A stretch of 64,000 bases of DNA, filler included, from Stramenopiles sp. TOSAG23-6 (Eukaryota), in NCBI GenBank assembly GCA_900128565.1. It is 9 parts of 9 records of this genome, joined end to end, with 100 filler letters (N's around TTAATTAATTAA, not from the genome) between each part and the next. Parts side by side here need not be neighbours in the genome. Positions count along the whole stretch, not along the records: positions 14,402 to 21,494 come from LT636611.1; positions 21,595 to 28,675 come from LT636612.1; positions 28,776 to 35,846 come from LT636613.1; positions 35,947 to 43,015 come from LT636614.1; 5 more parts are not named here. One strand, given 5' to 3'. Made by a program: the position numbers and the translations under genes. Shown here in pieces: positions 7,204 to 39,880 of the stretch; the first letter of the stretch is position 1, and each line of letters begins with the position of its first letter. The notes under the pieces were generated by a model. The model ran no database searches and had not been told where the DNA came from. It saw only the letters and a list, made by a program, of their open reading frames with translations.

Positions 7204-7268
7204 TGTTAGGTACAAAATTTCGTACGAAAAAAAAATCGATTTTTTTGTTTAAAAAAAATAAAACATAC

Positions 7269-17400: not shown

Positions 17401-19410
17401 TATAAAAGTTTATGTATTTTGGAAAAATATTTCAAAAATTTTCTATACAAAAAAAATTTGTTAGGTACAAAATTTTTTATAAAAACCAAAAAACCAAAAA
17501 ACCAAAAAAACCAAAAAAAAAATCGAATTTGAAAAAAAATTAAAACATACATTAAACCTATAAAAAATCTGAGTTAAGATTTTTGGAGTGTTTTGTGATG
17601 ATTCTTCGTCTTTTGGCATGTTTTTCATTCTCCATACATTATATGCATCAAATAGTGATTTTTTTACTTTTGTTTTATACACAGAACCAAATTTTTTTAT
17701 ATACTTTCCAATATGTTCTTTCAATTCGTCGTCTTTGTTTTTAAAGTTATTTTTGCATTCTGGATAATTACTAGTATGTAAAAAATCTAAAATTCGGTTG
17801 ATATCTTGTCGAAATTTTTCATCAGTGCCAAGAATTGTGTTGACAGTGTCGTCATCTACCTTCATTTCCAACACTTGAGACAATTGGTCATGTATTTTGG
17901 AGAAAAAAAAAATTCAAAAAAAAATTGTTAGGTACAAATTTTTTATAAAAAAAAAACATTTAGACAAAAAATTTGAAAAAAAAAAATTAAACATACATGA
18001 TGTTGAAATGTTGAAACAGCAATTGCTTCATTCAACAAAGATTGAAAAATATGAGAATGATGATTAGAATTAGACCCATTTTGTTGAATATTCACATGGT
18101 TCTCTGCCAATTGTATCATTTTTTTCCATATAAAATCTGTAATAAAATCATCCAATGGATTTTTCATTTGAAGTTCAATAAATACTTTTCGTCTCTGAAT
18201 GTATTTTGGAAAAATATTTCAAAAAAAAATTTTGAAAATTAGTTAGGTACAAAATTTCGTACGAAAAAAAAAAAATAAATTCGAAATTGAAAAAAATAAA
18301 ATAAAACATACATTCGATTCTGTGCATCTCGAAAACGCATTTCATTCGGTAAGGTAATGAATTGCATTTCTTTTGGCAAATTTGTAATTAATATTCTATT
18401 CAAATCTGTTGAAATAACTTTTGTGCTACATTGACCTTTACCAAATGCAATATTGTACAAATGCAGAATTGATTTCATGTATTTTGGAAAATATTTTCAA
18501 ATGTTTTTTCGTTAGGTACAAAATTTCGTACGAAAAAAAAATCGATTTTTTTGAAAAAAAAAGTAAAACAAACATTTCCTCTTTTGCAGGTTCTGTTGTA
18601 AAATCATCCAACTCCTCTTTACCAATGTATTTTGGAAAAATATTTCAAAAACAAATTAAAAATTTGTTAGGTACAAAATTTCCTAGGAAACCGAAAACAA
18701 ATAAATTCAATTTCAATTTCAATTTAAAATTTAAAAAAAAAAAAAAAACATACATAATAATCCATCTACAATTGTTACTAGTAATAGAGTTACCTGTGAG
18801 TAAATTAACACATGTATGTGATTGTTGGCATTCATCTTGGGTCCGCTCTTTGCCATTTTTTCCATTTTTAAAGCGACAGCAAGTATTTTGGAAAAATATT
18901 TCAAAAAACAAATCGTTAGGTACAAAATTTCCTATAAAACAAAATAGACAAAAAAAATCATACAAAAAAAAAAAATAAAACATACAATTCGCTTTAACTT
19001 CATTTTGATTTTCTTCCTCCAAAAAACGAACATTATTTGCAATATTTGCAATATTTGATTGATTTGTTTGTTGTATTTCAAAAATTTCTTCAAGACTGTC
19101 AAATTGATTGCGTTCTCCACACAGTCTTGTTTTCCCAGTTGCCATTGTTTTAATTTTTTCGATTTTTTTTTCTAACTTTTTAATTTTTGATATTGTTCTG
19201 TCCCTTTTTATGTTTGTCATCTGTTCATTTATTACTTCTAAATCAATCTCACAAAGTGATTTATTCTGAGAGCTAATGTCTATAATATTAACAGCCTCAT
19301 GTAAACAATTTAACATATCATTATCTGGAATATATTCAGAATGTTGAATACCTTTGACTAATTTTTTTGCTTTATCTTGTAAATGATTTTTACATGTTTC
19401 ATTGGACTCT
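14493..19410 (-). CDS. Large multi-exon protein of unknown function, partial. Introns at 18881-18985, 18625-18753, 18477-18573, 18199-18311, 17890-17996, 17412-17550, 17136-17252, 16758-16946, 14656-14826 and from 14492 to the gap
   Basis: Removing the motif-bearing introns joins successive ORF fragments into one stop-free frame. No domain recognised; the 5' boundary is uncertain. Confidence 0.7.
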
Positions 19411-20061
19411 TTGAAACATGTTTTGTGAAATGATATATTGTACAATTGAATGTTTTTGTTATAATGAAAGAAGCAGACAAATAAAAACACATAAAAAAGA
19501 AAGAATAATCATTCATTCAACAATTATACACGTTTCAAAATGTAAAAATGGGAAACATACAATCACAATTTTCCTTCGTCAATGGATCAACATCATAATC
19601 ATCATCAGCATCATAATCATTCAAAATACATCTATATCTCTCCGCTGGATCTTTACATATATCGATACACTTATAGTTTACTAACTCATTACAAAGGTTT
19701 GGGATTCTTTTTACAAGTTGACGCTTTTTGATACCATCAAAGATTGAATAAATTTCTCTCGCAGATGTTTTGTGAAGAATATGTTTTTTTTCTGTTATAA
19801 ACAATATTTATTAGGAGGTGTGAACAAAAACAAAAAGGAAGAAAAATCAATTTTGTTTTTCTGTTATAAACAATATTTATTAGGAGGTGTGAACAAAACA
19901 AAAAGGAAGAAAAATCAATTTTGAAAACGTAGTCAATACGAAACACTCAAAACAAAATTATGATGAAAATAAAACAAAACCATGATGAAAACAAAACAAA
20001 ATCATGATGAAAACAAAATCATGATAAGGGTTTAGGGTTAGGGTTAAGAAAAACGACATAC

Positions 20062-21494
20062 ACGCTTCAGACAGATTTGAGACATTTTCTGTTTCTTTCA
20101 GTTGCACAATACTTTCAATTTGTCGTTCAGCAACTTCTGAGACTTTTCCATGTAATTCAAATATTTTTTTCATAAAACTATTCTTTTCCAATTCTCTGTA
20201 AACAGCTTCTGATTCGCGTAATGCCTTCCGAGATGCTTTTCTTATTATAATTTTACGTACAGATTTTATAAAATGTCCAATCTTTTTAGGAATATTTTCA
20301 AATTCAACCAATCGAGAAGCAGCCTCAGCAATTATACCCGTAGTTTCGATAGATTTTGATACTGTGTCTACTTTTCGAATAGCTGCTTCGGTGCATTCGG
20401 CTAACAATTGAATATCTTTTATATTTCGTAAATAGATAAGTTTTGCAATGTAAGTATTGTACATTTTGCGTATCAAGTCTAATGATACCCATATACCATC
20501 AAAGTTTATTGAAGTTACATGTAATATTTGCAAAGCAATATATTTTTGTGCATGATACTGTTTCAATTTTAATGATTGCACTGCTTCCTCCTTCCGAGCA
20601 GACACCTCTGCTGTAAAGTTCACCAATTCAATTGATTTGTATTGGAGTATTGCATTTGTATTTCGCCAAGATGCTTCAGCAGCATTCACCGCATTGCCTT
20701 GCGTATTACGTTGAATGATTTGTTTACCAAGGATCTTGAATTTATGTTTGACTTTCGCTACAATTTCAATCTTTCTCGCTGCGGTCTCAGATATTATACC
20801 AAATAATTCAATTGATTTATTTTTGAGTAATGCTTCCACAACTCTCGGTCCTACTTCTACTTCATTTACCGCTCTGCGTTTTTCATTTTGAATAATGATT
20901 TGTCTACCAAACCGTTTAAATTTAGTTTTATCTTTTACCCCATGTTCGATTAATCTAGTAGCCGCTTCAGCTGTTACACCTGCTAACTCAATTGCTTTAT
21001 GTCTACTACCTGTAACGGCCACTCTCAACGCTGCTTCCGCATCTTTCACTGATTTGAATTTTAAGTTTTGTACAATTACCTTTCTCACAAACATTTTGAA
21101 TTTTCTCTTCTTGGATGATTCCATCTGTCTGATAGCAGATTCGGACAGTTTCGCAACTAATTCATTCGATGTATATTTATGTAAAGAATCCAGAATGTGC
21201 CATGCTGCTTCTGCTTCGTTGACAGCAGTGTCTACCGCAATACGTACAATTGCTTTTCTCCCAAGGAACTTGAATTTATCTTTGACTTTCACAATTAAAT
21301 CAATTTTTCTTTCCGCTGATTCCGCTGATACACCGGCGAATTCAATTGATTTACGGTTGAGCGCTTCATCTGTGTTTCTCAATGATGTTTCGGCTTCATT
21401 TGCCGCTTTATCTTGCGCATTTAGTAAAACTAATTGTCTACCAAACAGTTTGAATTTATCTTTGACTCTCATAATTAGTTCAAATTTTCGAGAA
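20062..21494 (-). CDS. Helical/coiled-coil internally repetitive protein fragment, 5'-partial; possibly an upstream part of the 14493-19410 gene
   Basis: Long ORF with ~59-aa repeats (KFKxxGRQ...AVNEAEA...KSIEL...EAAxR). A GTATG donor-like site lies near 20061. Confidence 0.6.
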
Positions 21495-21704
21495 NNNNNN
21501 NNNNNNNNNNNNNNNNNNNNNNNNNNNNNNNNNNNNNNTTAATTAATTAANNNNNNNNNNNNNNNNNNNNNNNNNNNNNNNNNNNNNNNNNNNNAAAAAT
21601 GTTTTTTTTTTGAATTTTTTTTTTTGAATTTTTTTTTGGTTTCATACGAAATTTTGTACCTAACAAAAACTTTTGTTTTTTTCAAATATGTTTCAACAAT
21701 ATAT

Positions 21705-22830
21705 GTTCATTTTGATGATGAAGAAGCTGTAATATACTATAATGATTGTATTAAAATTGCGACAACTTCTGCCTTACAAGAAATGTATCTTTTTTTTTTC
21801 AATTTTTTATCTAAATATTTTTCATAGTAAATTTTGTACCTAACAATTTTAAAAAAAAAATTTGAAATATTTTTTCAAAATATATGCTCATTCCTGGTTT
21901 AATGGCCATTTTTGCACCTGCAGTTGTCGGCTTTTTGCTTGGCGCACCAGCGCTGGCAGGTTTGCTCATTGGTGCATTAACATCTGGATTTATGTTGGCA
22001 GTTACAATGTACGTTTTTCATCATGAATTTATTAATTTATTTTTTTTTGTACGAAATTTTGTACCTAACGATTTTTTTTTTTTTTTTTTTTTAAAAAACA
22101 TGCCGAATGCTGGGGGGGCTTGGGATAATGCTAAAAAAATTTTTTTTTTTTTTTTTTTTTGACAAAACATGGCGAATGCTGGAGGTGCTTGGGATAATGC
22201 TAAAAAGTTCTGTGAAAAAGGAGGTTTAAATGTTGATGGAATCACTGACAGAGGTAAAGGCACTCCTGCTCATTCTGCAACTGTGGTTGGTGACACTGTT
22301 GGTGATCCTTTTAAAGATACATCAGGTCCATCATTGAACATGTATGTTTTTTTTTTTTTTTGGTAAAAAAATTTTGTAAAAAAAAAAAAAGAAAAAATAT
22401 TTTTTTTGTACAATATTTGATTTTTTTTTTTTTTAAATTTTTTTTTAAATTTTTTTTCATAGTAAATTTTGTACCTAACCAAAAAAAAAAAAAAACTAAA
22501 ATTTTTTTTTTGAAATATTTCTTCCGATACAGTTTGATCAAGTTGATGTCCATTGTAGCTCTTGTCCTAGCACCGTTATTCAAAACTTGTTGTCAAAGTC
22601 ATTTTGATACTACCGATGGTATAGTTGCAGGAATTGTTCTTTTTACATTGACAATTGTTTTATGCGCTATAATTTCGTATTTAATGAACAAATCAAGTGA
22701 ACAACGAAAACTTGAAGTTGATGCGAGAATGAGAGCCATCAACGGGAACCACAAACCTGCTTCAAGTAAAGCTGCAGTTGTCCCACAAAACGAGTCAAGA
22801 AGTCCAAATCAAACAGATTTGGTCAAGTAA
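21705..22830 (+). CDS. Membrane H+-translocating pyrophosphatase, C-terminal part. Exons 21705-21784, 21886-22008, 22171-22341, 22533-22830
   Basis: Spliced product reads [22 protein letters not shown] and [25 protein letters not shown]. Confidence 0.95.
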
Positions 22831-24240
22831 TTGACTTTATTCCTACTGTCGAGTATTGTTAGTAGTATATTATTGATATCGTACCATTTTTTTTTTTGAG
22901 ATTTAAATTTTTTTTTTTTTTTTTTTTCCGTAAAAAACGAAATTTTCGTAAAATACGAAAAAAAAAAAAAAAAAAAAAATTGAAAATGTTNTAACAAAAA
23001 ATGGTATGAAATTTTATGATACGAAAACTACATCATCGAATCGAATAGGAGAGAGATTGCATTGGCTCAATTGAAAGATCTGTACCTAATACCATACTTG
23101 AAACGTTTCGTCAATAATGAATGAAAGTGTTGAGTGTTGCTTTGTTATTATCGAAATGTTTCATAGAGAATTTTGTACCTAATAAATTTTCAATTGGCTG
23201 TCTATTATTATCATTTATTTTTTTTTAATTTTTTTTATCTTTTAGATGATTAGGTACAAAACAATGGTACTGAATCTCACAATGCGTACAACACTAATTA
23301 TTTTTTTTCTATTTTTTTTTTATTTTTTCATTATTTTTTTATTGTTTTTTTATTTTTCCTAATTTTTTCATTGTTTGTTCATTTAGAAGTCCAAAAAAGT
23401 TCTTGAGACTTACCAGTTGAAAGATCTCTTTTCAATTGAACGAATTGAATAAGATATTTTGTTGTCATTTAAAGTAAAAAATTGAGTTGTGATCGTAATA
23501 GTTGACGAATTTCAGTTGGTATTGAACCAGTAAATTGGTTACCAAACTGCCACAGTCTTTCGAGATTTGCTAGTTGACCAATTTCCGTTGGATCCAGAAA
23601 ATTTATTCGAAAATTATTCATAAAAAAAAAAATTAGTAAAATAAATAAATAAAAAAAAAATAATAAAAAAAAAAATTCAAAATTTGCAGGATCCGGGGGC
23701 TTTTTTCTCCCTGGATATCCTGCAAATTTATTCGAAAATAATTTATAAAAAAAAAAATTAAAAATAAATAAAAATTTAATAAATTAGACATTGGACAATA
23801 TCACAAATACGTAAAAATTATTTCATTACAAAAAAAAAATTTTTTAATAAAATAAATCTGAGATATAGAAATTTCAGAAAGTAACGTAAATAAAATCTCA
23901 TTTTTTCGTCGACGAAAAAATGAGAAAGTAACGTAAATAAAATCACCACTTTTTTGTTCAAAAAAATCGAACAAAAAAGTGGTAAAAACAGGTTTTTTTT
24001 TTCCCTCATATATCGGCAAAGTAATAAAAAAAAAATATTTTATATTGAATCTGCCAAATATATTTATACATTGAATTTATCAAAAGTTAATGTACAGATC
24101 CCAGAATTTCTTTTTTGATTACCGGGTTCCGAACCTTTTGGTAAGTTGCCACACCATTTATATTATATATAGTTTCATTATACTCTTCTTCGTCAAACAA
24201 GAGCTTTCCCCGACACTAGTCATATGTTCATAGGGACGAG

Positions 24241-27200
24241 TCACGAGTCAAAAAAACCATCGTCATCACTATCGCTGCTACCCCAAGTAGATTCTTCATC
24301 GTCTCCACCATCTTTCATCTGACCAAAATATGCCGCGTGATCAGGATTTAGATTTATATTTTCCTTTTGTCTTCTTTTTTGATTTCGTAACGCCAATTCG
24401 AATTGTGGCTGCGATAGTTTTGCCGGTTTCTTTCCTCTTGCCTTTGTTTTTAGTTGTACTCCATTCTGTATTTCTGATAATAACAAAGAAGATCTCGTTG
24501 GTCTCTTTGGAGCTAGACTTTTTGGTATCAAAACATCCTTTGCATTACGTCGAACTCTGTAACCTCGAGCAACAGCCTGGATTTTTCTTGCAGCAGCATC
24601 CTCCTCTGCATCCTTTGCATCACGACGACTACGATTAAAATCCACGATAAGTGGGTCACGACGAGCTCTGTGACCTCGAGCGAGAGCTTGGATTTTGCTT
24701 TCGGCAGCAGCATCACGACGCGCCTGGATTTTTGCTTGTGCCACTGCTTCTTGCTCTTCATCAAAATCGGGATCATATTCGTCGTCATCACTTGGGTCAG
24801 AATCCGTCCATTCTTCAGAATCCGTCAATTCTTCAAAAGCCGTCAATTCTTCAAAACCATCAAGTGTTTCGTCTGCTTCGACTGCTTCACATTCGCAAAA
24901 GTGTGCGGTTCGTTTGACTTGATATTGGTTTTGCATTACAATTTGCATCATTTCCTCTCCCTTTCTTTCGCACATTTGTCGATTCATTATTGTGTTTCTT
25001 TCAACCAAATTATGAATATAAATCATACCACCGGATGGCTTAAGATCTATAGAGAGAGGGAAATGTTTCAACGTCTCTTTATATAATTTTGTGGATTCGT
25101 CTTCGTCAAGGGCGGGAAGGTTTAGATAGAAGCACCAGCCTCGTTGCTCGGGCTGTTCGAGTTCTTCAAAAAATGTTTCAGCATCTTGGATCTCTTGACC
25201 AGATTCTTTAAGAACAAAAAAATTGACGAAATTCTGACTATTCTTTCCATTTTTACAAGTATCTGTACATTTACGCTTCAGATAATCTGCTGCTTTTGCT
25301 CTTGCTGCTGCTGCTTTTGTTTCTGCTCTTGCTGCTGCTGCTGCTCTTGCTTCTGGAGTAGCTTTTTCTTTTTCTTCAGCAATACGTTCTGCTTCTGCTT
25401 TTGCTGCTTGTTGGCGACGTCGAGCAGACTGAATGACTGTAGCTGCGTTTTCTGCTTTTGCTCTTGCTGCTGCTTCTTCTTTTGCTGCTTTTGCTGCTGC
25501 TGCTGCTTTTGTTTCTTCTTCTTCTGCTGCTGCTGCTGCTGCTTTTGCAGCAATTCGTGCTTCTTCTGCTGCTGTTTCTTCTTCTGCTGCTGCTGCTTCT
25601 GCTTTTGCTTTTGCCGCTGCAGACTGAATAGTTGTAGCAGCTTTCTGTCGTCGTTGTTGTTTTGCTTTAACTGCATTACCACGGGCAACAGCTTGAATAA
25701 CTGTAGCTGCTGCAGCAATTCGTTCTGCTTCTGCTTCTTCTGCTGCTGCTTGTGCATCTACTTCTGCTTTTGCTGCTGCTTGTGCTGCCGCTGCTTGTGC
25801 GCCTGCTTGTGCTTGTACTCTTTGTTGTTTTGTTGTTAATGTTGCTGCCGGTTGTACTGCTTGATTGAAATCAGCACCATTCTCAAGAAGTTGAACTACT
25901 TCAGCATGACCATTCAGTGAAGCAATAATCAATGGGGTATATTCGTTTTTATCATCCTGGTTGAGATTAGCACCAACAGCAATAAGTTTTGCAACTACTT
26001 TATCATTACCATTTGNTGAAGCAATAAGCAATGGGGTTTCTCCGTATTTGTTAGCCGTGTTGACATCAGCACCATTATCAAGAAGTACTTGAACTACTTC
26101 TGTATAACCAAACTCTGAAGCAGTAAACAATGGGGTTTCTCCATCCTCATTCTTCTTGTTGACATCAATTCCCTTTTCACCAAGAAGTAATTCAACTCTT
26201 TCAACATTACCATTCATTGAAGCAGTAAACAATGGGGTTTCTCCATACTCATTCTCCTTGTTGACATCAATTCCCTTTACATCAAGAAGTAATTCATCTC
26301 TTTCATCTCTATCAACATCACCTTTGTGTGAAGCATCAAATAAGACTGTTGGTGTTGGCATTCCTGGTGCTGCTGCTGCTGCTTTTGCTTCTGCTTTTGC
26401 TTTTGCTATATATTGTTTTGCTGCTTCTGCTTTTGCTTCTGCGGCTGCTGCTCCTGAAGACGATGATCCTGATGATGTTCCTGATGATGTTGCCTCCACG
26501 GCCTCTTCCCCTTCCTCTACCACGACCTCTTCCTCTACCGCGTCCTCTGCCTCGACCTTTGCTGGTGGTGCTGATGATGTTGCTGTTACTGTTGCTGTTG
26601 CTGATGCTGGTGCTGATGATGTTGCTGGTGCTGGTGCTGGTGCTGATGATGTTGCTGGTGCTGGTGCTGGTGCTGATCCACCACCACCACCTCCTCCGCC
26701 TGCTGGTGGTGCTGGTGTTGGTGCTGGTGTTGGAGGATCTGGATCATCATCTCCTGATCTACCACATTTTTGTGGTATTGCGCCTGTTGCTTTTGCCAAT
26801 TGCTCGCAATACTTTGTTTTGTCTGATGGTCCTTTACTGTTCTTACCTCTCGAAACATTAAAGCTCAAAATAATTGAACCCGGTTTCACAGAAATACCCT
26901 TGATTCCCTTTACTACAGAATCTCCATTTTCCTCCACCGCATGTATAATCTTTTTCTTTTTATCGATATAGTCATTATTCGGATCATACGCATCTGAAAA
27001 ATGCAACTTAATAGAAATTTTCTTCTTTTTTAGAAAGACCAACGGAATTAAAATACCAAACGTTGTAGCAATCGCAAGAAGACAGACAACAAGTATAATT
27101 ACTTTTTGTTTTGTCCAGAATGTTTTTTTCTTACTTGTACTTGACTTCTCTCCCAACAATGGAGTCTCGGATGGCTCGGATGATGTCGTCATATTATTTG

Positions 27201-27255
27201 CTTTTGACTTCTCTCCCAACAATGGAGTCTCGGATGACTCGGATGATGTCGTCAT
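24241..27255 (-). CDS. Intronless single-TM protein with ankyrin repeats, IQ-like motifs, Ala-rich coiled coil and a C-terminal WH2-like/acidic tail
   Basis: TM segment VIILVVCLLAIATTFGILIPLVFL; GETPLFTAS ankyrin repeats; IQAVARG and IQALARGHRAR; LLSEIQNGVQLK; acidic end DDEESTW. First ATG at 27255. Confidence 0.8.
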   Translation of the reverse strand: MTTSSESSETPLLGEKSKANNMTTSSEPSETPLLGEKSSTSKKKTFWTKQKVIILVVCLLAIATTFGILIPLVFLKKKKISIKLHFSDAYDPNNDYIDKKKKIIHAVEENGDSVVKGIKGISVKPGSIILSFNVSRGKNSKGPSDKTKYCEQLAKATGAIPQKCGRSGDDDPDPPTPAPTPAPPAGGGGGGGGSAPAPAPATSSAPAPAPATSSAPASATATVTATSSAPPAKVEAEDAVEEEVVVEEGEEAVEATSSGTSSGSSSSGAAAAEAKAEAAKQYIAKAKAEAKAAAAAPGMPTPTVLFDASHKGDVDRDERDELLLDVKGIDVNKENEYGETPLFTASMNGNVERVELLLGEKGIDVNKKNEDGETPLFTASEFGYTEVVQVLLDNGADVNTANKYGETPLLIASXNGNDKVVAKLIAVGANLNQDDKNEYTPLIIASLNGHAEVVQLLENGADFNQAVQPAATLTTKQQRVQAQAGAQAAAAQAAAKAEVDAQAAAEEAEAERIAAAATVIQAVARGNAVKAKQQRRQKAATTIQSAAAKAKAEAAAAEEETAAEEARIAAKAAAAAAEEEETKAAAAAKAAKEEAAARAKAENAATVIQSARRRQQAAKAEAERIAEEKEKATPEARAAAAARAETKAAAARAKAADYLKRKCTDTCKNGKNSQNFVNFFVLKESGQEIQDAETFFEELEQPEQRGWCFYLNLPALDEDESTKLYKETLKHFPLSIDLKPSGGMIYIHNLVERNTIMNRQMCERKGEEMMQIVMQNQYQVKRTAHFCECEAVEADETLDGFEELTAFEELTDSEEWTDSDPSDDDEYDPDFDEEQEAVAQAKIQARRDAAAESKIQALARGHRARRDPLIVDFNRSRRDAKDAEEDAAARKIQAVARGYRVRRNAKDVLIPKSLAPKRPTRSSLLLSEIQNGVQLKTKARGKKPAKLSQPQFELALRNQKRRQKENINLNPDHAAYFGQMKDGGDDEESTWGSSDSDDDGFFDS

Positions 27256-27702
27256 ATTATTTGCTTTTGCTACTTGTCTTTGTTGTACACTTTGAATACA
27301 GAATATATTAGTATCGTGTGCACCACACGACGATTTACAAGCCAAACAGTGTAAACAAATAGAGAAAAACGCTGGAACGACGATTTGGATACGATTTTTA
27401 TAACCGACGGGTAACTACTCAAAAAGTCGGAGATTTTCCGAAAATTTCGAATCTCAAAAATCTTTTCGAAATTGACATTTTTTTTGAACGAAAAAAAAAA
27501 CGAAAAAAAATTAAACATGAATAATTAAAAAAAAAAAAGAAATCTCTTTAAATAACGTATTGCTGCTACCATGGCCATTCAACTAAAGAATGTATAGATT
27601 TAAATTTTGTTTTATTTATTTTTTACTTTTTTGTAATATTTTTTGTACCAAACAATTTTTTTNACTTTTTTTTAAATTTTTTTAAAATTTTTTTTAAATT
27701 TT

Positions 27703-28171: not shown

Positions 28172-28219
<48 letters not shown>

Positions 28220-28506: not shown

Positions 28507-28775
28507 ATGTATTTTGAAAAAATATTTCAAAAAAAAAAAAAAATGTTTTTTGGTTAGGTACAAAATTTACTAAAAAAAAATTTACTAAAAAAAACCAAAA
28601 AAAAAAAAAAATTCATACAAAAAAAATTCACAAAAAAAAAAAAAAATATTTTTTTTTTGTTTAGGTACAAAATTTNNNNNNNNNNNNNNNNNNNNNNNNN
28701 NNNNNNNNNNNNNNNNNNNTTAATTAATTAANNNNNNNNNNNNNNNNNNNNNNNNNNNNNNNNNNNNNNNNNNNN

Positions 28776-30729
28776 TACAATATTCCATATGAATTCTATT
28801 ATTACTAGGGTTAGGGTTAGGGTGTTTAGCATAATAAAGATCATTACAATATTCCATATGAATTCTATTATTACTAGGGTTAGGGTTAGGGTGTTTAGCA
28901 TAATAAAGATCATTACAATATTCCATATGAATTAATTTTTGAGTGATTGTATCATTATATTCAGATAATTCACATAATTCATTTTTAACTTTGGTATATT
29001 TTTGTATAATATTTTTAATTTCACAATTTTTTGAATGTTTTGAATTAGGGTTAGGGTTAGTCATTGAAAAAATTCTATTGTTATTTTGTATATTCATATT
29101 ATTTTGATTATTTTGTGTATTATTTTGTGAATTATTTTGAGATGTTTGTGAGATATCATCATTAGGGTTAGGGTTTTCACAAGTTGTTGTTGTTGCTGTT
29201 GTGTCGTTTTTTAACTGTAATCGCAATTTATTAATTTCAGCTTTTAATTTAGCTATTGTCTTAGACTCAATCTCAGATGAACTTTCATTCTTTATTGCTT
29301 TATTTTTGATATTTCGTGCACGATTAGCATATATTGTTAAGACATATATAGACGAGACAATTGGTGAGATGTGAAATTTTTACTACAAAAAAAATTTAAA
29401 AAAAAATTAAAAAAAAAAAATTTTTAAAATTAAAAAAAAAAATTTAAAAAAAAATTCAAAAAAAAAAAAATTAAATCGTAAATTCATATTGAAAACATAC
29501 ATAATGTAATGTAGACATTGATTCTTCATGATTTGATAATGCAGGTGAAACACACGAAATAATCAAAGTTCTTGAGTTTCCACCTAAACTATCCCGTAAA
29601 ATTCGTGTCAATTTTGAATCTCTATATGGTATAAAAATAATTTGAAAAATATTTCAAAATTTCAATTTTTTTTTTGTTAGGTATAAAAATTTTTTTTAAC
29701 GGAAACCAAAAAAAAAAAAAAAAATTTTGAAAAATTTTGAAAAAAATTGAAAACGTATATAAAGCTTTTTTACTTTTACCCTTATTTTTTTTTTTATTCG
29801 ATTTTTCACATTTTTCAGATTTTTGATTGTTTTGTGTTTTTTTACTTTTTGGTGTTTTTGGTGTTTTTGGAAATTTTGGTGTTTTTGGAGTTATTCCATC
29901 ATCACCTAAAGCCGATATGACATTACCTAATGCAAGTAAACCTTTATTTATATTTATACCCTCTCGCATATTAAATCACGAAATATTCAAAAAAAAAATT
30001 TCAAATTTTTTTTGTTAGGTACAAAGTTTACTACGAATTATTTTTTTTACATTAGGGTTAGGGTTATAATAAAAACATACATTCGTATTCCAGATGAACC
30101 TGTTCGCTTTGCACGTTCACTTCCAGCAAGGTCAACAAACGTAAATTTTGAAAGAATATATTTTGTATTTTTTTGTGTTTTTTGTGTTTTTGAATTTTTT
30201 TCATTTTTTTCATCTGAAATTGTTGTAATTTTCTGTCTAATTTTCATTGTAAAAATTGCATGTGAACGAGACGACGCTGAATTCATGTAATGTTTGATAC
30301 ATAGTACATATTTGAATTGTATTTTTAGTTTACTTTTTTTATAGGAAAAAATTAAAAAAATAATTTAAAAAAAAATTTAAAAAAAAATTAAATTTTTTTT
30401 TTAAAACTCGTTAGGTACAAAATTTCGTACGAAAACCAAAAAAAAAAAAAAAAAAAATTATTCATTGTAAAGAAAAACTACATCTGCGTTTCTCCTGTGA
30501 TTCGATGTTGACTACATTTATGTAAAAAATTTGACATTTCGTGTTTTGAATGAACTAATTCTTCATGTAGGCCTTCTATTGTGACACCTCCTTTTGAAGC
30601 ATCTCGTATAGAAATTTTCTTACTTGAATGAACATTTGATAAATCTCGAAGATTTTCTCCATGTATTGTGGAAAAAAAAAAAAATTCAAAATTGGTCAAT
30701 ATTTTTTTGTTAGGTATGAAATTTCGTAC

Positions 30730-30771
<42 letters not shown>

Positions 30772-30806
30772 AAAAAAAAATTTTTTTTTAGGTAAAAAAT
30801 TTCCTA

Positions 30807-30844
<38 letters not shown>

Positions 30845-31515
30845 GTACATACACCTCAAGAAAAGATAAATAAATGTTAATTTCAACAGTTGTGTTTTTC
30901 GTGTTACTTGTATTTGATTGATTCTTCATATCAAATGTTTCATTTTCATCAAATGTTTCATTTTTTGTACGATTTTTATTGTAAAGTGACGTCATCAAAG
31001 TTCGTTTTTTGACCTCATTTTCAACACTTTGGAAAACTCTAGGAATATATTTCAAAAAATATTTCAAAAAAAAAAAATTAATTTGTTAGGTACAAAATTT
31101 CGTACGAAAAAAAACTCCATTTTTTTTTTAGGCTCAAAAAAAAAAATAAATCATACATGATTCCATTATTTGAGTTCGATTCATTTTTCATTGAAGCTGC
31201 ACTACCCATTGTATATGTCTTACCTGAACCTGTTTGACCATATGCAATCACAGTTGCGTTAAACCCTTCAAAACAATTACTAACAAGATCTTTAACACAA
31301 GTGGAATAAATGTCATCTTGAGTCGATGTCGGATCAAATAGAAAGTCAAAAGTAAAATTTGTACTATTATTGTCACTTGTTCCAATTTTTAATTGAGGTG
31401 GGATAGTTGCAATCTTTTCAATACAAATTGAATCATTATTGTCTAGCTCTTTTTGTCCTAAAGGACGAATACGAACAGCTACTCGAACCCTACCCGAATC
31501 TTTTGCGTTGCTCAT
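28776..31515 (-). CDS. Kinesin motor protein, kinesin-4-like, 3'-partial. Introns at 31045-31156, 30661-30848, 30285-30481, 29968-30080, ~29625-29758, 29329-29500
   Basis: [30 protein letters not shown] and [18 protein letters not shown] within exons. Splicing restores [42 protein letters not shown] and [15 protein letters not shown]. Confidence 0.95.
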
Positions 31516-31786
31516 TTTTTGTCTTGACTAGTCAATTTGTGTACGTCACGTATTGTTACAGAATCATCTAATATGTACAACAAACTTGATTGCACTTATA
31601 TATAAAATAGACTCCTTTACTGGGAATTATGTACGAAATTGTATGAGAGAAAAAAACCCAACAACATACTAAAGTTGTACTACGTACCGTAAAATATATT
31701 TTTTGAGGAGGAGGAAGAGTTCTCGTTCTCTCTCGATTTTTTTTTAGTATTAAATAGTTTCAAAATTTTGATTTTGATGTGTCCTA

Positions 31787-32362
31787 GCGAGTTGGAATTG
31801 ATTTCGTGGTTGGCATTGCTGACGGTTTTCAATTTCGGATTTCCCAAAGCAAAAGGGTCAAAAAAAGCAAAAAAAGCAAAAAAATAAGTTATCCTGCAAA
31901 GAAAAGCTAAAAGAATGATTTTTACTCCCACTTATTCCACTCAAGGATCAAGAGTAATGAAAAACAGCAAACAGTATACAAGCTATGGTATTCAACATCA
32001 AATTAAAAGTAAAAATAAAAAAAATTAATTTTGGAAGAATACAAATTTGAAATTGCGTGCCAGATTTTCAGATTTCGTGTTACCCGGGATTAAATTTAAA
32101 TTATTATTTGTCAACTCAGACATCAGTACCTCAACTGTTTAAACCTTCAACATGTTCTATTTTATTAATAAATAATGATTTAGTACTAGAGTCTATATAC
32201 ACATCTAATACAGCATTATACAAGTCCTCAAGGGTGCTGATGTAATATTTTCATTAATTTGCTTTTTTTTGCTTTTTTAGCTGATTTTGCTTTGGGTATG
32301 GTTTTCGGATTTCATTTTGGACGAGTGCTGCAATGCCAACCACGAAATCAATTCCAACTCGC
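31787..32362. mobile_element. Putative MITE / non-autonomous DNA transposon with 33-bp perfect inverted repeats
   Basis: GCGAGTTGGAATTGATTTCGTGGTTGGCATTGC at 31787-31819 and its exact reverse complement at 32330-32362, plus imperfect inner inverted repeats; no convincing ORF. Confidence 0.6.
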
Positions 32363-32605
32363 CTAAAAATCCAAAAAATCGAAATCCAAAAAATCCAAAA
32401 AAGAAAACGAAAAAAAAACGAAAAAAAAATATTTATATAAAATACAAAATTTACAAATTATATTAAAATAAAATGAATTACACGTAGCTACAGTATGTAG
32501 TAGCAATACCTAGCTAGTTCGAGTTATTTCCGTCTACACACACGTAATTCATTTTTGTATGTTTTATTTTCGTGTTTCCCTAACCCTAACCCTAGCTAGT
32601 TCGAG

Positions 32606-33842
32606 TTATTTCCGTCTACACGCACGTAATTCATTTTTGTATGTTTTATTTTCGTGTTTTAGTTTTTGAATTATTTTCGTTTTTTCTTCGATGATTTTGA
32701 GTAATTCATTAATTAGTACCTCATGGGATGTAGATAAATTTTGTTTTGTTTCTTTTTTAATTTGTTGATTTNTGAGAGATGAATTTTGTTTTGTTTCTTT
32801 TTTAATTTTGTTTTCAATTGAACTCATTTTTTTTTTTTTTTTCATATTTTCCTGCATTGGTTGTTGGCATTTTGAATCTTTCAAATTTGTACTTTCAGTT
32901 TCAGAAAATGATCTTTTTTTTGTTTTTTGTACATTTTGTTGTGCTACATTTTTTTCAACTTGGTCCAAAGTACAGTTTTTTTTTGTGATTTGTTTTTTTG
33001 GCTTTTTTGGCTTTTTTGACAATTTTGACAATTTTGTTTTTTTTTGTTCTAGAAAAGATTCTAAAGGTAAATGTCGATGAAATGGCGATGTACATTGTTG
33101 AAATACAACAATTGCACCAATATCAAAATTATGTCCAGTTTTATTTTTTTTTCTTTCCCCTCGGCTTCCTTCATTTTGTTCTCTTAAGAAATCTTCAACA
33201 TTTTGTTTTCCAATTATTTTTTTGGCTACGAGAAACCAGCCACGTATTCATTGTAAATGGTATACATACATGTTTTTTATACTATGTGTAAGAATTTTAA
33301 GTTGTGTATGTAATAACAATAACAAGTAGGGGATAAAGAAAAAATAAAATATACATTGTCCACAATTTGTCTTTTTTTTTCTTTGAAATTGCAAATATAT
33401 GATAATTTAATGGTATTCTATTAACTGTTGTAAGTCTATTTTTTGTATTGGATATCCAACATTCACCACGGAGGAGAAACCGAGGGTTCCAATCTTCCTT
33501 TACTTGTAACAAAACTGGTCCTGAACACGGTTGAGGTGCTTTTTTTGTATTCATGTTTTCAAATTCATCAAATGTTCCAATTTGACCATTACATTGAAAT
33601 AATGCACCACGTCCTGTTTGTTTGATACCACGACTTCTACGGAAAAGACCAGATGCTGCTTGCCCTTGAAGAACTTTTTGAATCTCTGATTTGTTCCCGA
33701 GTGATATTGTTGTGTTCACTTGTTGATTGAGTTTTTCAAATAAATGTATATGTGATTGTGTAAGGTTTGCGTGACATACAGAAATATTACTTTTACATTC
33801 ACTTTTAATATGTAGACTGGTTATACAACTATTTTTTGCCAT
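32606..33842 (-). CDS. Hypothetical protein(s): a 181-aa ORF (33297-33842) and a Lys-rich coiled-coil ORF (32606-33031), connection unresolved
   Basis: Two same-strand ORFs. I could not find a splice joining them without a stop codon. Confidence 0.35.
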
Positions 33843-34220
33843 TATGTAGATAAATCAAAACATTGTTTGGATACAATTGTTTGTGCGTTACTACAACTAA
33901 CTATTATGTAGTAACTATACTATATACTGTAGCTAATAGCTACTGTTATTATCTCTACTATACTAGTTTTATACTGTTGTAGTAGTAGTACGCAGTGCCA
34001 CCAAGGGAATAAGTTATATTCTTCCTTTGGCTTTGGCCGGGGGTTGTCAAAACATTCTTTGCTTTTGAAATAAAACCCTAACCCTAGCCTATAGTAATTT
34101 TTTTATTTCGACCGCGTGTGACAGTGACTTGTCTTGTGACACACAAACAACTACAAGAATTAATTACGATACTACAGTAGTATGCAAGTCTATAACCAAA
34201 GTATTGACAACTAAATAAAA

Positions 34221-34859
34221 ATGATAACAAATAGCGTAACTTCACATACAAAGACCTGGGAGAAACCTGCAAGATTTGTTACAGGTTCGTCTCTAATCGG
34301 AGCAAGTATTGGTGCAGGGTATCACGTATTTGGTGCTACTGCTGCAAAAATCCAGGGCTTCCCAGTTGTTTGGTCGTCTGTTTACAAATTAGCTAGACGT
34401 TCTTGTCTTCGGTTTGGAATGATTGGTGGCTGTTTTGCATTATCATACGCTACATGTGCAACATATTGTCATGATTCACATCGTATAGGTACGTTACTTT
34501 CTGGAGGTATTGGCTTAGTCAGTGGAACAGTAGTGGATTCTGCATCAATGAAAACAACAATGACAAAGTTTAGTGTTAGCCGACCCTACCTTCTCTCGAG
34601 TATGTTTTTAAGTGGGTTTATTTTTCTTGGTGGTGGTACTTTACTTGTAGAAAGAATGTTACATCAACCTCTTTATTCTACTAATAGGTTACTTGAACCA
34701 AAAATTGTACCAAATTGTGAAAAAATAGACAAATCCGATAGAAATGACACATTGTTACAATTGTCAAATAATAATGAATTAAATACATCAAATACTACAA
34801 GCATACATACACAATATGATGATAATAGACAGAATAATTCTGGAACTTTTTTCAAATGA
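34221..34859 (+). CDS. Small Gly-rich membrane protein, possibly Tim17/Tim22/Tim23-family
   Basis: GxxxG-rich hydrophobic segments (LIGASIGAG, FGMIGGCF...C, LSGGIGLVSG). Confidence 0.45.
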   Translation: MITNSVTSHTKTWEKPARFVTGSSLIGASIGAGYHVFGATAAKIQGFPVVWSSVYKLARRSCLRFGMIGGCFALSYATCATYCHDSHRIGTLLSGGIGLVSGTVVDSASMKTTMTKFSVSRPYLLSSMFLSGFIFLGGGTLLVERMLHQPLYSTNRLLEPKIVPNCEKIDKSDRNDTLLQLSNNNELNTSNTTSIHTQYDDNRQNNSGTFFK

Positions 34860-35049
34860 TTTTTTTTTATTTTTTTGTTACACAAAAAATGTTCTACAAC
34901 CCTAACCCTAACGGAACAGGGTTAGGGTAATTTCTACCCTTACAATAAAAATGGTACATAAATAATAAAGGAAATATCTAATAAAACATATAAACAATAC
35001 ATTTTAAAATGAAGTTTTGATTTTAAAAAAAAAAAAAATATTTTAAAAA

Positions 35050-35650
35050 TCATTGTAAAAATGGATGCTCTAGCAAACAACTTGCTGAAAGTCTCATTGA
35101 TGCATTTACACAAAGTAATTTTTGAATTACGTCTTTTACTTCATCACTTAAATTTCCATAGATTTCGTTACTTGTATCAAAATCACCATTTAAAATATTT
35201 TCAACAATTTGACTATCACTTTCATCAGCGGTTGGATCAAATGGGTGAATTCCACATACCCTTTATTTGTAAAAGATAAATACACTTTTTTTTTTTTTTT
35301 TTTTTTTTTAAATGTTAGGTACGAAATTTCGTATGAAAAAAATGAAGAAAATATATATATTTTTTTTTTTTTTTTTTTTTAGGTACGAAATTTCGTATGA
35401 AAAAAATATTTTTTGATGAAAAAAAACCTACATTACATAAAGTATAACACCCAATGACCACATATATTGTGCAAAAAAACACGAAATCATGAAAAAAATC
35501 GTTAGGTACGAAATTTCGTATGAAAAAATAAATATATTAATAAATTCATGATGAAAATGTACATATCAGATTGTGTCATTGAAACTGTATCCTTCATCAT
35601 CGTTTCGGGCGCAGCGTAGCACCATGTGCCACCAAAGAAACGTCCCGGTA
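35050..35650 (-). CDS. CAMK-like Ser/Thr protein kinase, C-terminal exons. Introns at 35462-35562 (GT-AT) and 35261-35431 (GT-AG)
   Basis: GTWCYAAPE; spliced SDMWSLGVILYVMVCGIHPFD; ends in RLSASCLLEHPFLQ-stop. Confidence 0.9.
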
Positions 35651-35946
35651 TATTTTGTGAGATATATATATAAATTTTTTTTTTTTTAAATGTTAGGTAC
35701 GAAATTTCGTATGAAAAAATAAATTTGAAAAAAAAATTGAAAAAAAAAAAAAAAAAAAATGTTAGGTACGAAATTTCGTATGAAAAAAAAAATTTGAAAA
35801 AAAAAAAATTCAAATTTTCAAAAAAAAAAAAAAAAACACACTTTTCNNNNNNNNNNNNNNNNNNNNNNNNNNNNNNNNNNNNNNNNNNNNTTAATTAATT
35901 AANNNNNNNNNNNNNNNNNNNNNNNNNNNNNNNNNNNNNNNNNNNN

Positions 35947-37590
35947 CCAAAACCATTTGGTCCTCCACCTCCAAAACCACCAAAACCACCAAAACCACCA
36001 AAACCATTTGGTCCTCCGCCACAAAAAACACAAAAAACACAAAAAACACAAAACCAAATAGAACAATCTGTCGTCACTATACCACAACCACAACCAAAAT
36101 TAAGTATAGTAATAAAACCACTATCTATTTCATTTCCATCAGTTTCAAATGAAAATTCTGATTCTGAAGAAAACAACATAAATAAAAACATTCAGGTTTC
36201 AAATAATTCCTCAACAAAAACAACAACAACAACAACAACAATGTCATCTAGAATATCACGATTGTCACCCGTTGTAGCCAAGTTACGAAGAGACAGTCGA
36301 AAATATAGAGGTTTTAATAAATTTAGTATGAAAAATCAACCAAAAATACCAAAAATACCAAAAATACCAAAAATACCGTTTGCCATGCAATCTATAGAAG
36401 AAAAATCTTCAGATATTTCAAATTCTAATAACAAAATGATACAGGATACGTATGATCCACGTAATGAACCGGGTATCCATGATATAGACTTTATATACAA
36501 CTCGCCCCCCGTAACACCAGGAGGCAAAAATTCTATATTGGCTATAGCTTTGGCGGATGTACGTCTTTACTCATCATTTTTTTTAGAATCATTTTTTTCA
36601 CCTAATTTTTTAACCTAATGTTTTTTTTTTCGTAGGCAATTTTGTACCTAACAAAATTTGATTTTTTTTTTGAAATATTTTCTCAAAAATACATTACGTA
36701 GCAACTGATAATAATGAATTAACATTTAGAAAAGGCGATTTAATAAGAATATTACAACAAGCTGCGAGTGGCTGGTGGAAAGGTGAAATTCGTCATATGG
36801 TTGGTTTCTTCCCTTCAACATTTGTACATATTAAATACGATTTATATACAATAGAGGAAGTAGATACACCACGAAATACAGATACAAATCACAGCACAAT
36901 TGGTGATACTATATTAAAAGCAGATCAAATAAAACAAATTAATGCATCTACAGAATTAGATCAAAACAAACAAATCAAATTAAAATCAACAGTAGATACT
37001 ACTACTACTATTGATCCACATAACCCTAACCCTAATCCACTCCAATCACCAAAATCAACAATACAATCAACTCTACATAAAACTAAATCTGCATTCAGTC
37101 CAATTCATAAAAATACCACCGTTCCAGTAAACCCTTCAACAAATATTTCTCCCAGTACGGCAAATACAATCGCCTCAAAAATGACATTGTCTTCTTCATT
37201 TGGAACTCAACAAATTCGAAATTCATCAAGTACCAAATTTCATATAGACTCGATTTCAATATCACCAAGAGCAAATCCAACAACAGATCCACGATCTCCG
37301 TGGGGAGAATTAACTCCACGATCACCATCACCTCTTCATTCACCGCCAAGATCACCAAGATGTAGGTTTGTTTTACTATTTTTTTACTATTTTTTACACT
37401 ATTTTTTACTATTTTTTTTTACTTTTAAAATGTTTTTTTGTTTTTTTTATGGAAAATTTTGTACCTTTACATTTTTCAACTCACCAATTTTGAATGAAAT
37501 ATATTTTTTCAAAAAACATCACCACCAAGATCACCTCGATCAAGTAAAAGTGGAAGAGCCAGCAGTCCACCATTGTGATTATATTCTCTA
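35947..37590 (+). CDS. Pro/Ser-rich SH3-domain protein, partial. GT-AT introns at 36559-36694 and 37362-37519
   Basis: Splicing gives a complete SH3 domain: AIALADYVATDNNELTFRKGDLIRILQQAASGWWKGEIRHMVGFFPSTFV. Confidence 0.88.
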
Positions 37591-37895
37591 GGTACGAAAT
37601 TCGGTCAAAAAAATTTATAAAAAAAAAAATTAAAAATAAATTTTTTTATTTAAAAATTTATTTTATTGTTGTCCATGGAATTTTCATGTCATTCACAGAA
37701 CCTGAGGCTTTAAAACCAACATCAGCTTTAGATAATGTATCCATCATTTCTTGTGGGATCGACCAACCCTCCTGTAATTCTGAAAAAAAATTCCAAAAAA
37801 AAATTGTTAGGTACAAAATTTCGTACGAAAAAAAAAATTTCAAAAAAAAAAATTTTCAATTTCAATTTCAAATTTAAAAAAAAAATAAAACATAC

Positions 37896-39880
37896 ATTCA
37901 ATTTGATCACCAGGACACAAAACAACAGCACCAAGAACATCTGTTCCCATAAAACGAATACCCTTATGTTGATTTTGTTTTTTTTTCACAAGTGTAGAAT
38001 TAGAATTCGTGTTTTTTTTCAAAAGTTGTTTTTTTTTGTTTTTTTCTGATCTCATTTTCAATACAATTGCTCTTTTTTCAGGATCTGAAGGTAAACTTAA
38101 ACAGCCTTGATTTGTTTCATCATTTGTTTTATCATTTGTTTGATTATTTGTTTGATTATTTGTTTCATCATTTGTTTTATCATTTGTTTCATCATTTGTT
38201 TGATCATTTGTTTGATCATTTGTTTCATCATTTGTTTGATTATTTGTTTGATTATTTATTTCATCATTTGTTTCATCATTTATTTCATCATTTGTTTCAT
38301 CATTTGTTTCATCATTTGTTTTTTCGACTTCAAAAGGGACTATATAACCACCCAATATTGTCACATTTCCATGATTACTCCTATCATTTTTTGAATATCG
38401 TTTTGATGTATCCATTTCTGATATTGTCCCAATACAACGCTTTCCAGGAGTTTCAAGGGAAACACTGTTTTCAGGTAATAATGTAATTTCAAATGCACCT
38501 ATATTTTGGAAAAATATTTCAAAATTTTTTTTTTTAGTTTCAAAAAAAAAAAAAAATTGTTAGGTAAAAAATTTTCAAAAAAAAAAAAAAATTCGATTTT
38601 TTTGTAAAAAAAAAATAAATAAAACATACCTATAGTATAATTATCTGATGCTTTCTTTTGATGACGATCAGATCTTTGGGATCTTTGGTAACCAGAGTGT
38701 CGTACAACACTTTCAGGAGGAGGAGGAGGTAAATATTGTGAAAAAATATTAAAAAAAAAAATTAATTTTTGTTAGGTATAAAATTTCGTACGAAAAAAAA
38801 ATTTCAAAAAAAAAAAATTCGAAATTGAAAAAAAAATAAAACATACAATTCCGTACCACTTAATACTATAAATGAGACACAATCACCCACACGTAGTTCA
38901 CCATTACGTCTTTCTTTTGGTATTTCGTGTTTTTGATGTTTTTGATGTTTTTGATGGTTGGAACAATTTTCATACCGAGTACTCTTATATATAGTATTTA
39001 TTTCAGAGTACATGTTATGTCCAAAATCATTTACATGTTTCGTACCAAATTCAGTACGTGAAGAATTTCGGATGTCCTGTGAATTATCAACATGATCAAC
39101 ATGATCAACATGATCATCAACACATGAACTTTCTTCATTATATTTTTTGTTTTTTTTGTCTTTTTTGTCTAAAGATTGACTAGTACTTTCTTCCATTTTA
39201 GGTAATGCGACAGTAGGATCAACCGTTTCTTCAGATTTGATGTCACAGAAAAAAAATTTCACTTTCTTGTTGACTGATGTTCGTTGAATCATTCCAAATT
39301 TGTTTTTCAAATTGATACTTGAGATAATACCTGTTTCAACATCACCATCTACAATATTCTCAGAAATAGTAAATTCACGTTCGGCTAACTTAACTGCTTC
39401 ACGATCTGCTTTTGATTGACCAAAGTGAATTGAGCTTGCTCTGGTCCGACCTCGATGGTCAGAGGATAGGAAAAAAGTAAGCTCATCACCGATAGAGATG
39501 TCTTGCTCATCAATTTGTCGAAGTTCCGAATAATGAAAGAAAATTTCGTCCATAGAGGAAGCATCATCATCAAGACAGAGGAAACCAAATTCACTCTTTT
39601 TCGAGGAAACAACACCAGTCAGTCGTTCACTTTGGTGGTGACTCTCTTCTTCACGTCTTTGNTTACCTCGGCTTTGGTACGAACTACGATGTCGATCATA
39701 TCGACCAGTATAACGCTGATTACGATCATAATCATCATGCCTATGGCTGTCACGCTGGTAGGACGAACGTCCTTGGCTGTACTCATTACGGGCACTAGTG
39801 TATCGACCTTCGCGTACATTAGACCTGCTTCCACGACTATAGCCACGAGAGTCACTTCGGTCATAACTATTGCGCCTCAT
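37896..39880 (-). CDS. Multi-cold-shock-domain RNA-binding protein (CSDE1/UNR-like) with an Arg/Ser-rich N-terminus. Introns at 38731-38846 (GT-TT) and 38499-38629 (GT-AG); 3' end unresolved
   Basis: TGVVSSKKSEFGFL...EIFFHYSE...IGDELTF, KFGMIQR...FFF and LRVGDCVSF are cold-shock-domain motifs; the spliced frame is continuous. Confidence 0.78.

Follow-up and report, generated by a model that had tools for sequence, protein, structure and literature searches.

An introner-like family of putative GT...AT introns in Stramenopiles sp. TOSAG23-6

Introduction

Introners, families of introns present in many copies, are reportedly described in detail for Micromonas and Aureococcus in the 2016 work of Huff. 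Here we analyze a 64-kb stretch of DNA from Stramenopiles sp. TOSAG23-6 (assembly GCA_900128565.1), called the window throughout, in which nine contigs of ~7.1 kb are chained together. Genes in this window carry numerous copies of one intron family that opens with a canonical GT, contains a branch module, and appears to be excised up to a terminal AT rather than AG. Our data give good support to an introner-like family whose acceptor is not AG, a conclusion that we hold with high confidence. That the acceptor was supplied by a 2-bp target-site duplication is plausible and the best available explanation; we lean toward it, although it is unproven. The best matches of a cyclin B open reading frame (ORF) and of a V-PPase exon from the window are gene models labeled eukprot:GSMAST32. 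Because these models, when mapped back, are 100% identical to the window exons, the source organism is apparently a MAST-3-like marine stramenopile.

It is useful to compare these introns with the closest described systems. The available sections of the introner survey (PMC9860276) describe a Chrysochromulina family that carries its own 5′ splice site and takes its 3′ site from a 4-bp target-site duplication, and they regard duplications made of consensus bases only as ambiguous. Like the introners in those sections, the family described here is high-copy, genic, and sense-oriented; the element supplies the 5′ site and the branch point, its far end falls on a short repeat in the flanks, and the reading frame is recovered upon excision (PMC9860276). 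Unlike them, it has AT as the co-opted end of 23 of 29 introns, whereas the families treated there are GY-AG. The repeat here is 2 nt long, as opposed to the 3–9 nt cited there for earlier families (PMC9860276), and the inverted repeat is limited to 4 nt; MAST-3 is not named in those sections of the survey.

Other lineages share part of this picture. In Amoebophrya, the accessible part of the report (PMC7789003) describes repeated non-GT-AG introns with short direct repeats overlapping the exon/intron boundaries, much as here. However, those introns have no clear end signature, and they carry inverted repeats of 8–20 nt that form hairpins together with direct repeats of 3–5 nt (PMC7789003); here, by contrast, GT opens 28 of 29 introns, the branch module is strong, the inverted repeat has 4 nt, and no fold is predicted. 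The U2-type introns of Fritillaria borealis, in the portion of the paper at hand (PMC13326754), resemble ours in having 3′ AT or AC ends, are spliced by the major spliceosome, and have introner transposons suggested as one of their sources. There, however, fewer than 10% of introns are GT/AG and divergent U2AF paralogues recognize the noncanonical 3′ ends (PMC13326754), whereas here the 5′ GT is intact. Physarum polycephalum, according to the sections of the preprint that we draw on (bioRxiv 10.1101/2020.10.12.336362), offers mass intron gain, a 5′ motif starting with GTAT, tolerance of GT-AT, and a transposon that duplicates 2 bp as the proposed origin. Its motif is nevertheless [G/A]TATC[C/T]TTT, its branch TTTGA lies 9–12 nt from the 3′ end, and its duplication is TA (bioRxiv 10.1101/2020.10.12.336362), as against GTATGT with TACCTAAC, a branch ~30–60 nt upstream, and an AT repeat in the window. 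Finally, ISL2EU elements, cut-and-paste transposons of the PHIS superfamily, are described in the available text (PMC4482050) as making a 2-bp 5′-AT-3′ target-site duplication in AT-rich targets, a likeness to the repeat considered here. Their inverted ends usually start with GG, their target is A/AT/T, and they are reported there from animals only (PMC4482050), whereas here the ends are GT...AC and G follows the site in 17 of 27 introns. A DDE/THAP transposase or a YqaJ ORF, the hallmarks of autonomous ISL2EU elements, was absent from the window ORFs scanned.

Thus, none of the known systems compared fits in full. What sets the present family apart is its combination of features: the GT is canonical, the branch module is strong, the 3′ end is fixed in position and mostly AT, and the repeat has 2 nt. 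We found no introners or noncanonical introns described for MAST or other marine stramenopiles in the literature, a search that did not cover the supplementary tables of the introner surveys, which may list MAST or Tara assemblies. A text search for intron or splic in MAST genome papers likewise gave no passage on unusual splicing.

Splice boundaries

Both ends could be fixed for 29 introns, 13 junctions by conserved protein motifs and 16 by reading frame. The 5′ end is GT in 28 of them, and the 3′ end is AT in 23, AG in four, and TT in two; the homology-fixed junctions comprise 11 with AT ends and 2 with AG. Spliced at these positions, five genes give ORFs of 1280 aa (9 introns), 754 aa (5), 612 aa (3), 372 aa (4), and 223 aa (3) without an internal stop, and the same five frames contain 17–50 stops when left unspliced. 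In what follows, a slash marks a splice position and a plus sign precedes the last two intron bases.

Three homology-fixed junctions lie in an SBNO-like helicase on the minus strand, read against the homologues P0242 and P0243. The intron at 8423–8497 (AT/GTATGT...ATAC+AT, with the branch motif TACTAAT) separates GLYM/ARM, which is GLYV-ARM in P0242. At 7915–8013 (GA/GTCTGT...AAAC+AT/G, without the repeat), the junction STGE/ARTK matches the conserved STGEART as STGE-ARTK. At 8663–8760 (TG/GGACGT...ATAC+AT), homology demands removal despite the lack of a 5′ GT, since RLGLW/GTGTPF corresponds to RLGLWGxGTxF; the boundary can slide by 1–2 G. Both STGEART and RLGLWGxGTxF recur across the SBNO-like helicase homologues that we retrieved. 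The 5′ dinucleotide of this last intron reads GG, GA, or AC, according to where the G run is divided.

The V-PPase gene, on the plus strand, provides three more homology-fixed junctions. These are 21785–21885 (AT/GTATCT...ATAT+AT), at QEM/LIPG; 22009–22170 (AT/GTACGT...AAAC+AT); and 22342–22532 (AT/GTATGT...ATAC+AG, without the repeat), at SLN-I-LIKLM. A 79%-identical relative, P0122, is contiguous over the last two. Within the second of these introns, at 22095–22170, lies a pseudo-exon of ~45 nt that repeats the intron end and the start of the next exon and is followed by a T run; either local duplication or chimera formation during amplification produced it.

Four junctions are fixed in a kinesin on the minus strand, and two of these are confirmed by continuity of the Pfam profile: at 29968–30080 (AT/GTATGT...TAAT+AT), profile positions 248/249/250 are contiguous over the junction, as are positions 195/196 at 30285–30481 (AT/GTAGTT...TTAC+AT). 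The intron at 30661–30848 (AT/GTACGT...ATAC+AT), which has two branch modules, falls at the kinesin motif SFLEVY/GENLRDL, and that at 31045–31156 (AT/GTATGA...ATAT+AT) falls at the kinesin motif GI-I-PR. A protein kinase on the minus strand adds two, 35261–35431 (AT/GTAGGT...ATAA+AG, without the repeat), at LYVM/VCGIHPF, after which the Pkinase profile resumes at position 192, and 35462–35562 (AT/GTACAT...ATAT+AT), at SDM/WSLGVILY. The last is in an SH3 domain on the plus strand, at 36559–36694 (AT/GTACGT...ATAC+AT; ALAD/YVATDNNELTFRKGD).

Where the exon ends in AT, removing AT+GT...ATAC gives the same mRNA as removing GT...ATAC+AT. Two homology-fixed introns, with cuts at 8013 and 22342, are placed before GT and 2 nt past the conserved 3′ block, at the same family-aligned positions. 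Because these two break the tie, parsimony argues for cuts at the same two aligned positions in all members of the family. Because the 2 nt past the 3′ block are AT in most copies, GT...AT introns would seem, on the evidence of the genomic sequence, to be spliced routinely in the source organism. AGs near the 3′ end are passed over where using them would break the frame; an example is the frame-fixed intron at 37777–37895 (minus strand; AT/GTATGT...CAGA+AT), where the nearby AGs are out of frame.

Several other ways of drawing the boundaries were rejected. An AT-AC intron, AT+GT...ATAC, is impossible at 8013, where the exon ends in GA, and at 22342, where the pattern is AT...AG. A canonical acceptor at the first AG would remove conserved residues from all 11 AT junctions fixed by homology, and at most other junctions it would not keep the frame. 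A 5-nt ATGGG repeat at 8760 gives the wrong frame, and homology there demands RLGLW/GTGTPF. An assembly artifact or a coding insert is ruled out by the stop-free spliced ORFs.

The intron family

The motif of the original prediction recurs in dozens of similar segments on both strands. An nhmmer profile built from 19 clean copies finds 42 matches in the 64 kb, on both strands, at a threshold of E ≤ 1e-3. The original prediction, which regarded these introns as copies of one repeated family and placed them between 18881 and 38846, was right on the first point and too narrow on the second: copies lie in sense orientation within genes and extend from 7051 to 57603, at a density of ~0.6 per kb. 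They are ~75–200 nt long and share a layout of GTATGT..., then the TACCTAAC branch module, then ...ATAC plus 2 nt. In the consensus, the 5′ part reads exon ..AT/GTATGTTTTATTTT.. and is followed by a variable T/A-rich stretch; the 3′ part reads ..TTTTCGTACGAAATTTTGTACCTAAC.., then ..GAAATATTTTTCCAAAATAC (or ..CACAATAC), then AT/exon. Each copy thus has three conserved parts, namely a strong 5′ splice site (GTATGT/GTACGT), an extended branch module (...CGTACGAAATTTTGTACCTAAC), and the 3′ block ...ATAC/...ATAT. Some introns have two tandem branch modules or consist of two tandem copies.

Are these simply old, vertically inherited, immobile introns that look alike only through a very long splice-signal consensus of this lineage? 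The copies are only ~73% identical (pairwise identity over aligned columns has a mean of 0.73 and a maximum of 0.90), and the 5′ site, the branch module, and the 3′ block are the most strongly conserved parts, all of which would suit such introns. However, the alignment of copies shows conserved blocks along the entire intron length, including blocks that are not splice signals. In addition, a family copy is cut off at 8 of the 16 internal contig ends, as expected if the repeat is so high-copy that assembly breaks there. Intron density is also very uneven, with none in ORFs of 2095 and 2384 aa (3–6290 and 50230–57384) and nine within 5 kb in the 1280-aa gene of contig 3 (14500–19508). Old introns would moreover leave the dinucleotide covariation described below unexplained. 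We consider this alternative very improbable.

A second alternative concerns the machinery rather than the ancestry of the family. An expanded minor (U12-type) or U12-like spliceosome, as in Physarum, could set the 3′ cut by distance with a loose dinucleotide, and this would fit either of the models of origin weighed below. In its favor, the 3′ cut lies at a fixed offset from the conserved 3′ block whatever the dinucleotide (AT, AG, or TT), and the 5′ motif GTATGTTTT is similar to [G/A]TATC[C/T]TTT. The sections of the Physarum preprint at hand document GT-AT as a noncanonical U12-type boundary and propose a transposon/TA-duplication model (bioRxiv 10.1101/2020.10.12.336362). Against it, the 5′ site is GTATGT/GTACGT and variants, not [AG]TATCCTT, and GTATCT occurs in only 1 of 29 introns. 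The TACCTAAC module, moreover, lies 19–61 nt from the 3′ end in most copies rather than 9–20 nt: among the 28 introns having a branch-like motif, 24 have the last one at a distance of 30–61 nt from the 3′ end, one at 19 nt, and three at >100 nt, so a U12-type branch (TCCTTAAC ~10–20 nt from the 3′ end) is not what is seen. An Rfam search of the window gave 0 matches. We regard a U12-type explanation as improbable.

Pattern scans of other contigs added no copies. A scan of viral contigs gave 77 matches, three of them with a loose ACCTAA upstream that we read as chance and none with the family branch module; a scan of JGI metagenome contigs for non-A 3′ flanks gave one chance match and no further copy.

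The two-nucleotide repeat and its origin

In 22 of the 29 cases, the intron and its upstream exon end in the same dinucleotide, a count close to the 23 of 32 given in the original prediction. Exon ends are AT in 22 cases, TT in 2, and AG, GA, TG, AA, and CC in one each. When the 3′ dinucleotides were shuffled among the 29 introns 200,000 times, the mean was 17.7 matches, high because AT dominates both sides, and 22 or more matches had P = 0.0036. AT stands on both sides in 19 introns, and in these the repeat is inseparable from consensus. For the three non-AT matches (TT, TT, and AG), P = 0.0004: TT ends an intron in just two cases, and in both the upstream exon also ends in TT, as no other exon does; the sole AG exon end is matched by one of the four AG intron ends. 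These are the three introns singled out in the original prediction, at 18881–18985 (TT/GTATGT...ATAC+TT), 38731–38846 (TT/GTATGT...ATAT+TT), and 38499–38629 (AG/GTATGT...ATAT+AG), all on the minus strand, and the sequence bears them out exactly. The covariation that it called for is likewise present within these 29 introns, with the excess coming from the non-AT cases. Boundaries of GTAT and ATAC, which it had described as typical, hold as a tendency and not as a rule: GTAT starts 16 introns, and the final two bases are preceded by ATAC in 15 and by ATAT in 5.

Of the 29 exon ends, 22 are AT, a dinucleotide that accounts for 9% of those in two long intron-free ORFs. Among 27 tabulated introns, G follows the intron in 17 and T in 7, and A occupies position −3 in 11. 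Once spliced, 14 of the 29 junctions spell ATG and 7 spell ATT, which points to a target preference for these two triplets. Where the PPase, kinesin, kinase, and helicase junctions were compared with homologues, the ATG interrupted by the intron proves to be a methionine codon in frame.

Our favored explanation is that these genes were colonized by one high-copy intron family, an introner, that would have spread as DNA in the form of a nonautonomous transposon. Each insertion would have made a 2-bp target-site duplication, with AT preferred in the context AT/G. The downstream copy of the duplication would then have become the last two intron bases, and because of this, excision would restore the original coding sequence. 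Later mutation, whether of T to G (turning AT into AG) or within the exon end, would account for the loss of the repeat in about one-quarter of copies. The conserved 3′ block, rather than an AG, would determine through its position where the 3′ cut falls. We also advance, more tentatively and as a possibility only, a sharper version in which the spliceosome cuts 2 nt past the transposon terminus, such that a transposon duplicating AT, with an ISL2EU-like footprint, could insert at any coding AT and be exactly removed.

The serious competitor keeps the same GT...AT family and dispenses with the duplication. The terminal AT would belong to the element or be a 3′ signal, copies would arise after an exonic AT (AT/G) by reverse splicing or through a nonduplicating transposase, and the repeat would be two consensuses coinciding. 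With AT at 23 of 29 intron ends and 22 of 29 exon ends, most matches are indeed expected (a mean of 17.7 of 29), and homology-fixed introns retain an AT end after exon ends GA and TG. Reverse splicing also predicts copies that are all genic and sense-oriented, as observed. What speaks against this competitor is the placement of both TT intron ends on the only TT exon ends and of one AG on the only AG exon end (P = 0.0004), and we know of no splice-site requirement for AT at an exon end. In the available sections of Gozashti et al. (PMC9860276), across-intron matches are said to be unable to separate duplication from insertion preference. Overall, we judge a duplication-free origin unlikely.

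Several observations weigh against the target-site duplication model that we favor. First, the excess of matches over chance rests on three introns, in a sample of 64 kb to which the metagenome scan added no copies. Seven of the 29 introns lack the repeat, pairing exon ends GA, TG, AA, and CC with AT and, in three cases, AT with AG. For four of them the junction rests on homology (8013, GA with AT; 8760, TG with AT; 22342 and 35431, AT with AG), and AT therefore acts as an acceptor without copying the exon end. Starting from a perfect repeat, one T-to-G change would yield each AT/AG intron and one change would yield AA/AT, as opposed to two each for GA, CC, and TG. Decay of an originally perfect duplication is conceivable, as an assumption, among copies that differ by ~27%. 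For the duplication claimed in the original prediction, the excess of the repeat over chance speaks in favor and these repeat-less introns speak against, and no empty site, polymorphism, or autonomous element came to light.

Second, the splice junctions are deduced here from protein homology and reading frame. In the TT introns, the repeat is real at the level of DNA, and TT is a putative acceptor whose position is fixed by frame modulo 3 only. Each has an in-frame AG downstream, 47 nt past ATAC in 18881–18985 and 23 nt past ATAT, after a CCT tract, in 38731–38846. A protein search with the cold-shock-domain exon for a spliced relative across the TT junction gave no match. The proposal that an acceptor of any sequence can serve consequently holds by homology for AT and AG, with TT compatible with the frame.

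Third, GTAT and ATAC occur together in only 10 of 29 introns, and this inverted repeat is only 4 nt long; 91.5% of its cells are able to pair, with no covariation, and it cannot be told apart from conserved splice signals. RNAalifold, run on 19 copies, gave no pairs and no consensus fold. We detected no transposase domain in the larger ORFs of the window that were scanned and no full-length intergenic or antisense copy among the nhmmer matches in the window; every copy with readable flanks is genic and in sense orientation. Since the copies are ~73% alike, the burst is not recent.

Hints of DNA mobility come from the tandem branch modules or copies inside several introns and from a miniature inverted-repeat transposable element (MITE)-like sequence between genes, at 48260–48408, directly upstream of the cyclin gene. 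The latter has 24-nt inverted ends, GTATACGAAATTTTnGTACCTAAA, which are similar to the introner branch module. ATTT borders it on either side; with the ends extended by one base, the flanks are TT instead.

Gene models and significance

The eukprot:GSMAST32 models are mis-spliced despite 100% exon identity. The V-PPase model P0121 (21884–22827) skips a conserved motif; P0241 (7227–9976) translates introns as an FFFIRNFVPN-type peptide; and P0001 (47008–48105) removes segments of 15 and 40 aa, although the cyclin ORF has no interruption. Gene calling in the MAST-3-like lineage is directly affected, and functional inventories drawn from such models will undercount genes. If the 3′ cut is in fact set by position, the ~0.6 copies per kb in the window would translate into some ten thousand GT-AT introns genome-wide, and published MAST-3 gene sets would be badly under-called. 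More broadly, the family would extend introners to uncultured MAST-3 stramenopiles and add a case of transposon-made introns with a non-AG acceptor, in which the choice of a 3′ splice site becomes testable in a free-living protist lineage.

Remaining introns, partial copies, and other features

The other introns were placed by reading frame and, except where noted, lie on the minus strand. Two of these are 8153–8243 (AT/GTACGT...ATAC+AT), for which alignment to P0242 and P0243 is compatible, and 8898–8986 (AT/GTATGT...ATAC+AT). On contig 3, the intron at 14656–14826 (AT/GTACGT...GTAT+AT) has telomere-like repeats inside, and that at 16758–16946 (AT/GTAGGT...ACAC+AG) consists of two tandem family copies and lacks the repeat. 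A chain of frame-linked introns continues with 17136–17252 (AA/GTATGT...ATAC+AT, without the repeat), then 17412–17550, 17890–17996, 18199–18311, and 18625–18753 (each AT/GTATGT...ATAC+AT), together with 18477–18573 (AT/GTTTGT...ATAC+AT). The TT intron at 18881–18985 also belongs to this chain, supported by its sequence and by the frame chain modulo 3 only; the second TT intron, 38731–38846, is placed by sequence and frame modulo 3 only, and the AG intron at 38499–38629 by sequence and frame. Two more occur at 42247–42349 (CC/GTATGT...ATAC+AT, without the repeat) and 42490–42693 (AT/GTACAT...ATTC+AT). The latter contains three tandem copies of a ~50-nt unit (..ACAAAAAAATGTTTTTGATTATTTTTTTACAAATTCA..) and lacks the TACCTAAC module, and the AT/GT...AT/G ends are kept.

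Partial or ambiguous copies complete the family. The 5′ parts cut by a contig end are at 7051–7103 (plus strand), 7204–7268 (minus), and 14402–14492 (minus), all with exon end AT, and at 57441–57603 (minus; AC/GTGTGT). The 3′ parts are at 21595–21704 (plus; ...ATAT+AT), at a contig start, and at 28507–28675 and 42957–43015 (both minus; ...ATAC+AT), at contig ends. A copy with two branch modules reaches a contig end at 35691–35846 (minus). Three copies allow several in-frame parses: 29642–29758 (minus), in which ATACGT replaces GTACGT; 42732–42832 (minus), which starts with ATATGT; and 45446–45520 (plus), in which a 5′ half of the family type is followed by a 3′ end, ...TTTCAG, that looks canonical.

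The contigs of the window are joined by linkers of the form N44-TTAATTAATTAA-N44, at 7104–7203, 14302–14401, 21495–21594, 28676–28775, 35847–35946, 43016–43115, 50182–50281, and 57341–57440. Pfam matches mark other genes as a glycosyl hydrolase 18 (13134–14300, minus strand), PPR repeats (57503–58858, minus), and a malate/lactate dehydrogenase (62651–63736, plus). Finally, 13 short internal telomere-like blocks, (TTAGGG)2-3 or its complement, are found at 14759, 20032, 28415, 28811, 28880, 29045, 29162, 30052, 32578, 34900, 37024, 43452, and 46597. Those at 14759 and 30052 are within introns, and some of the others fall where ORF translations read PNPNP; near 34900, the blocks occur in both orientations, facing each other.

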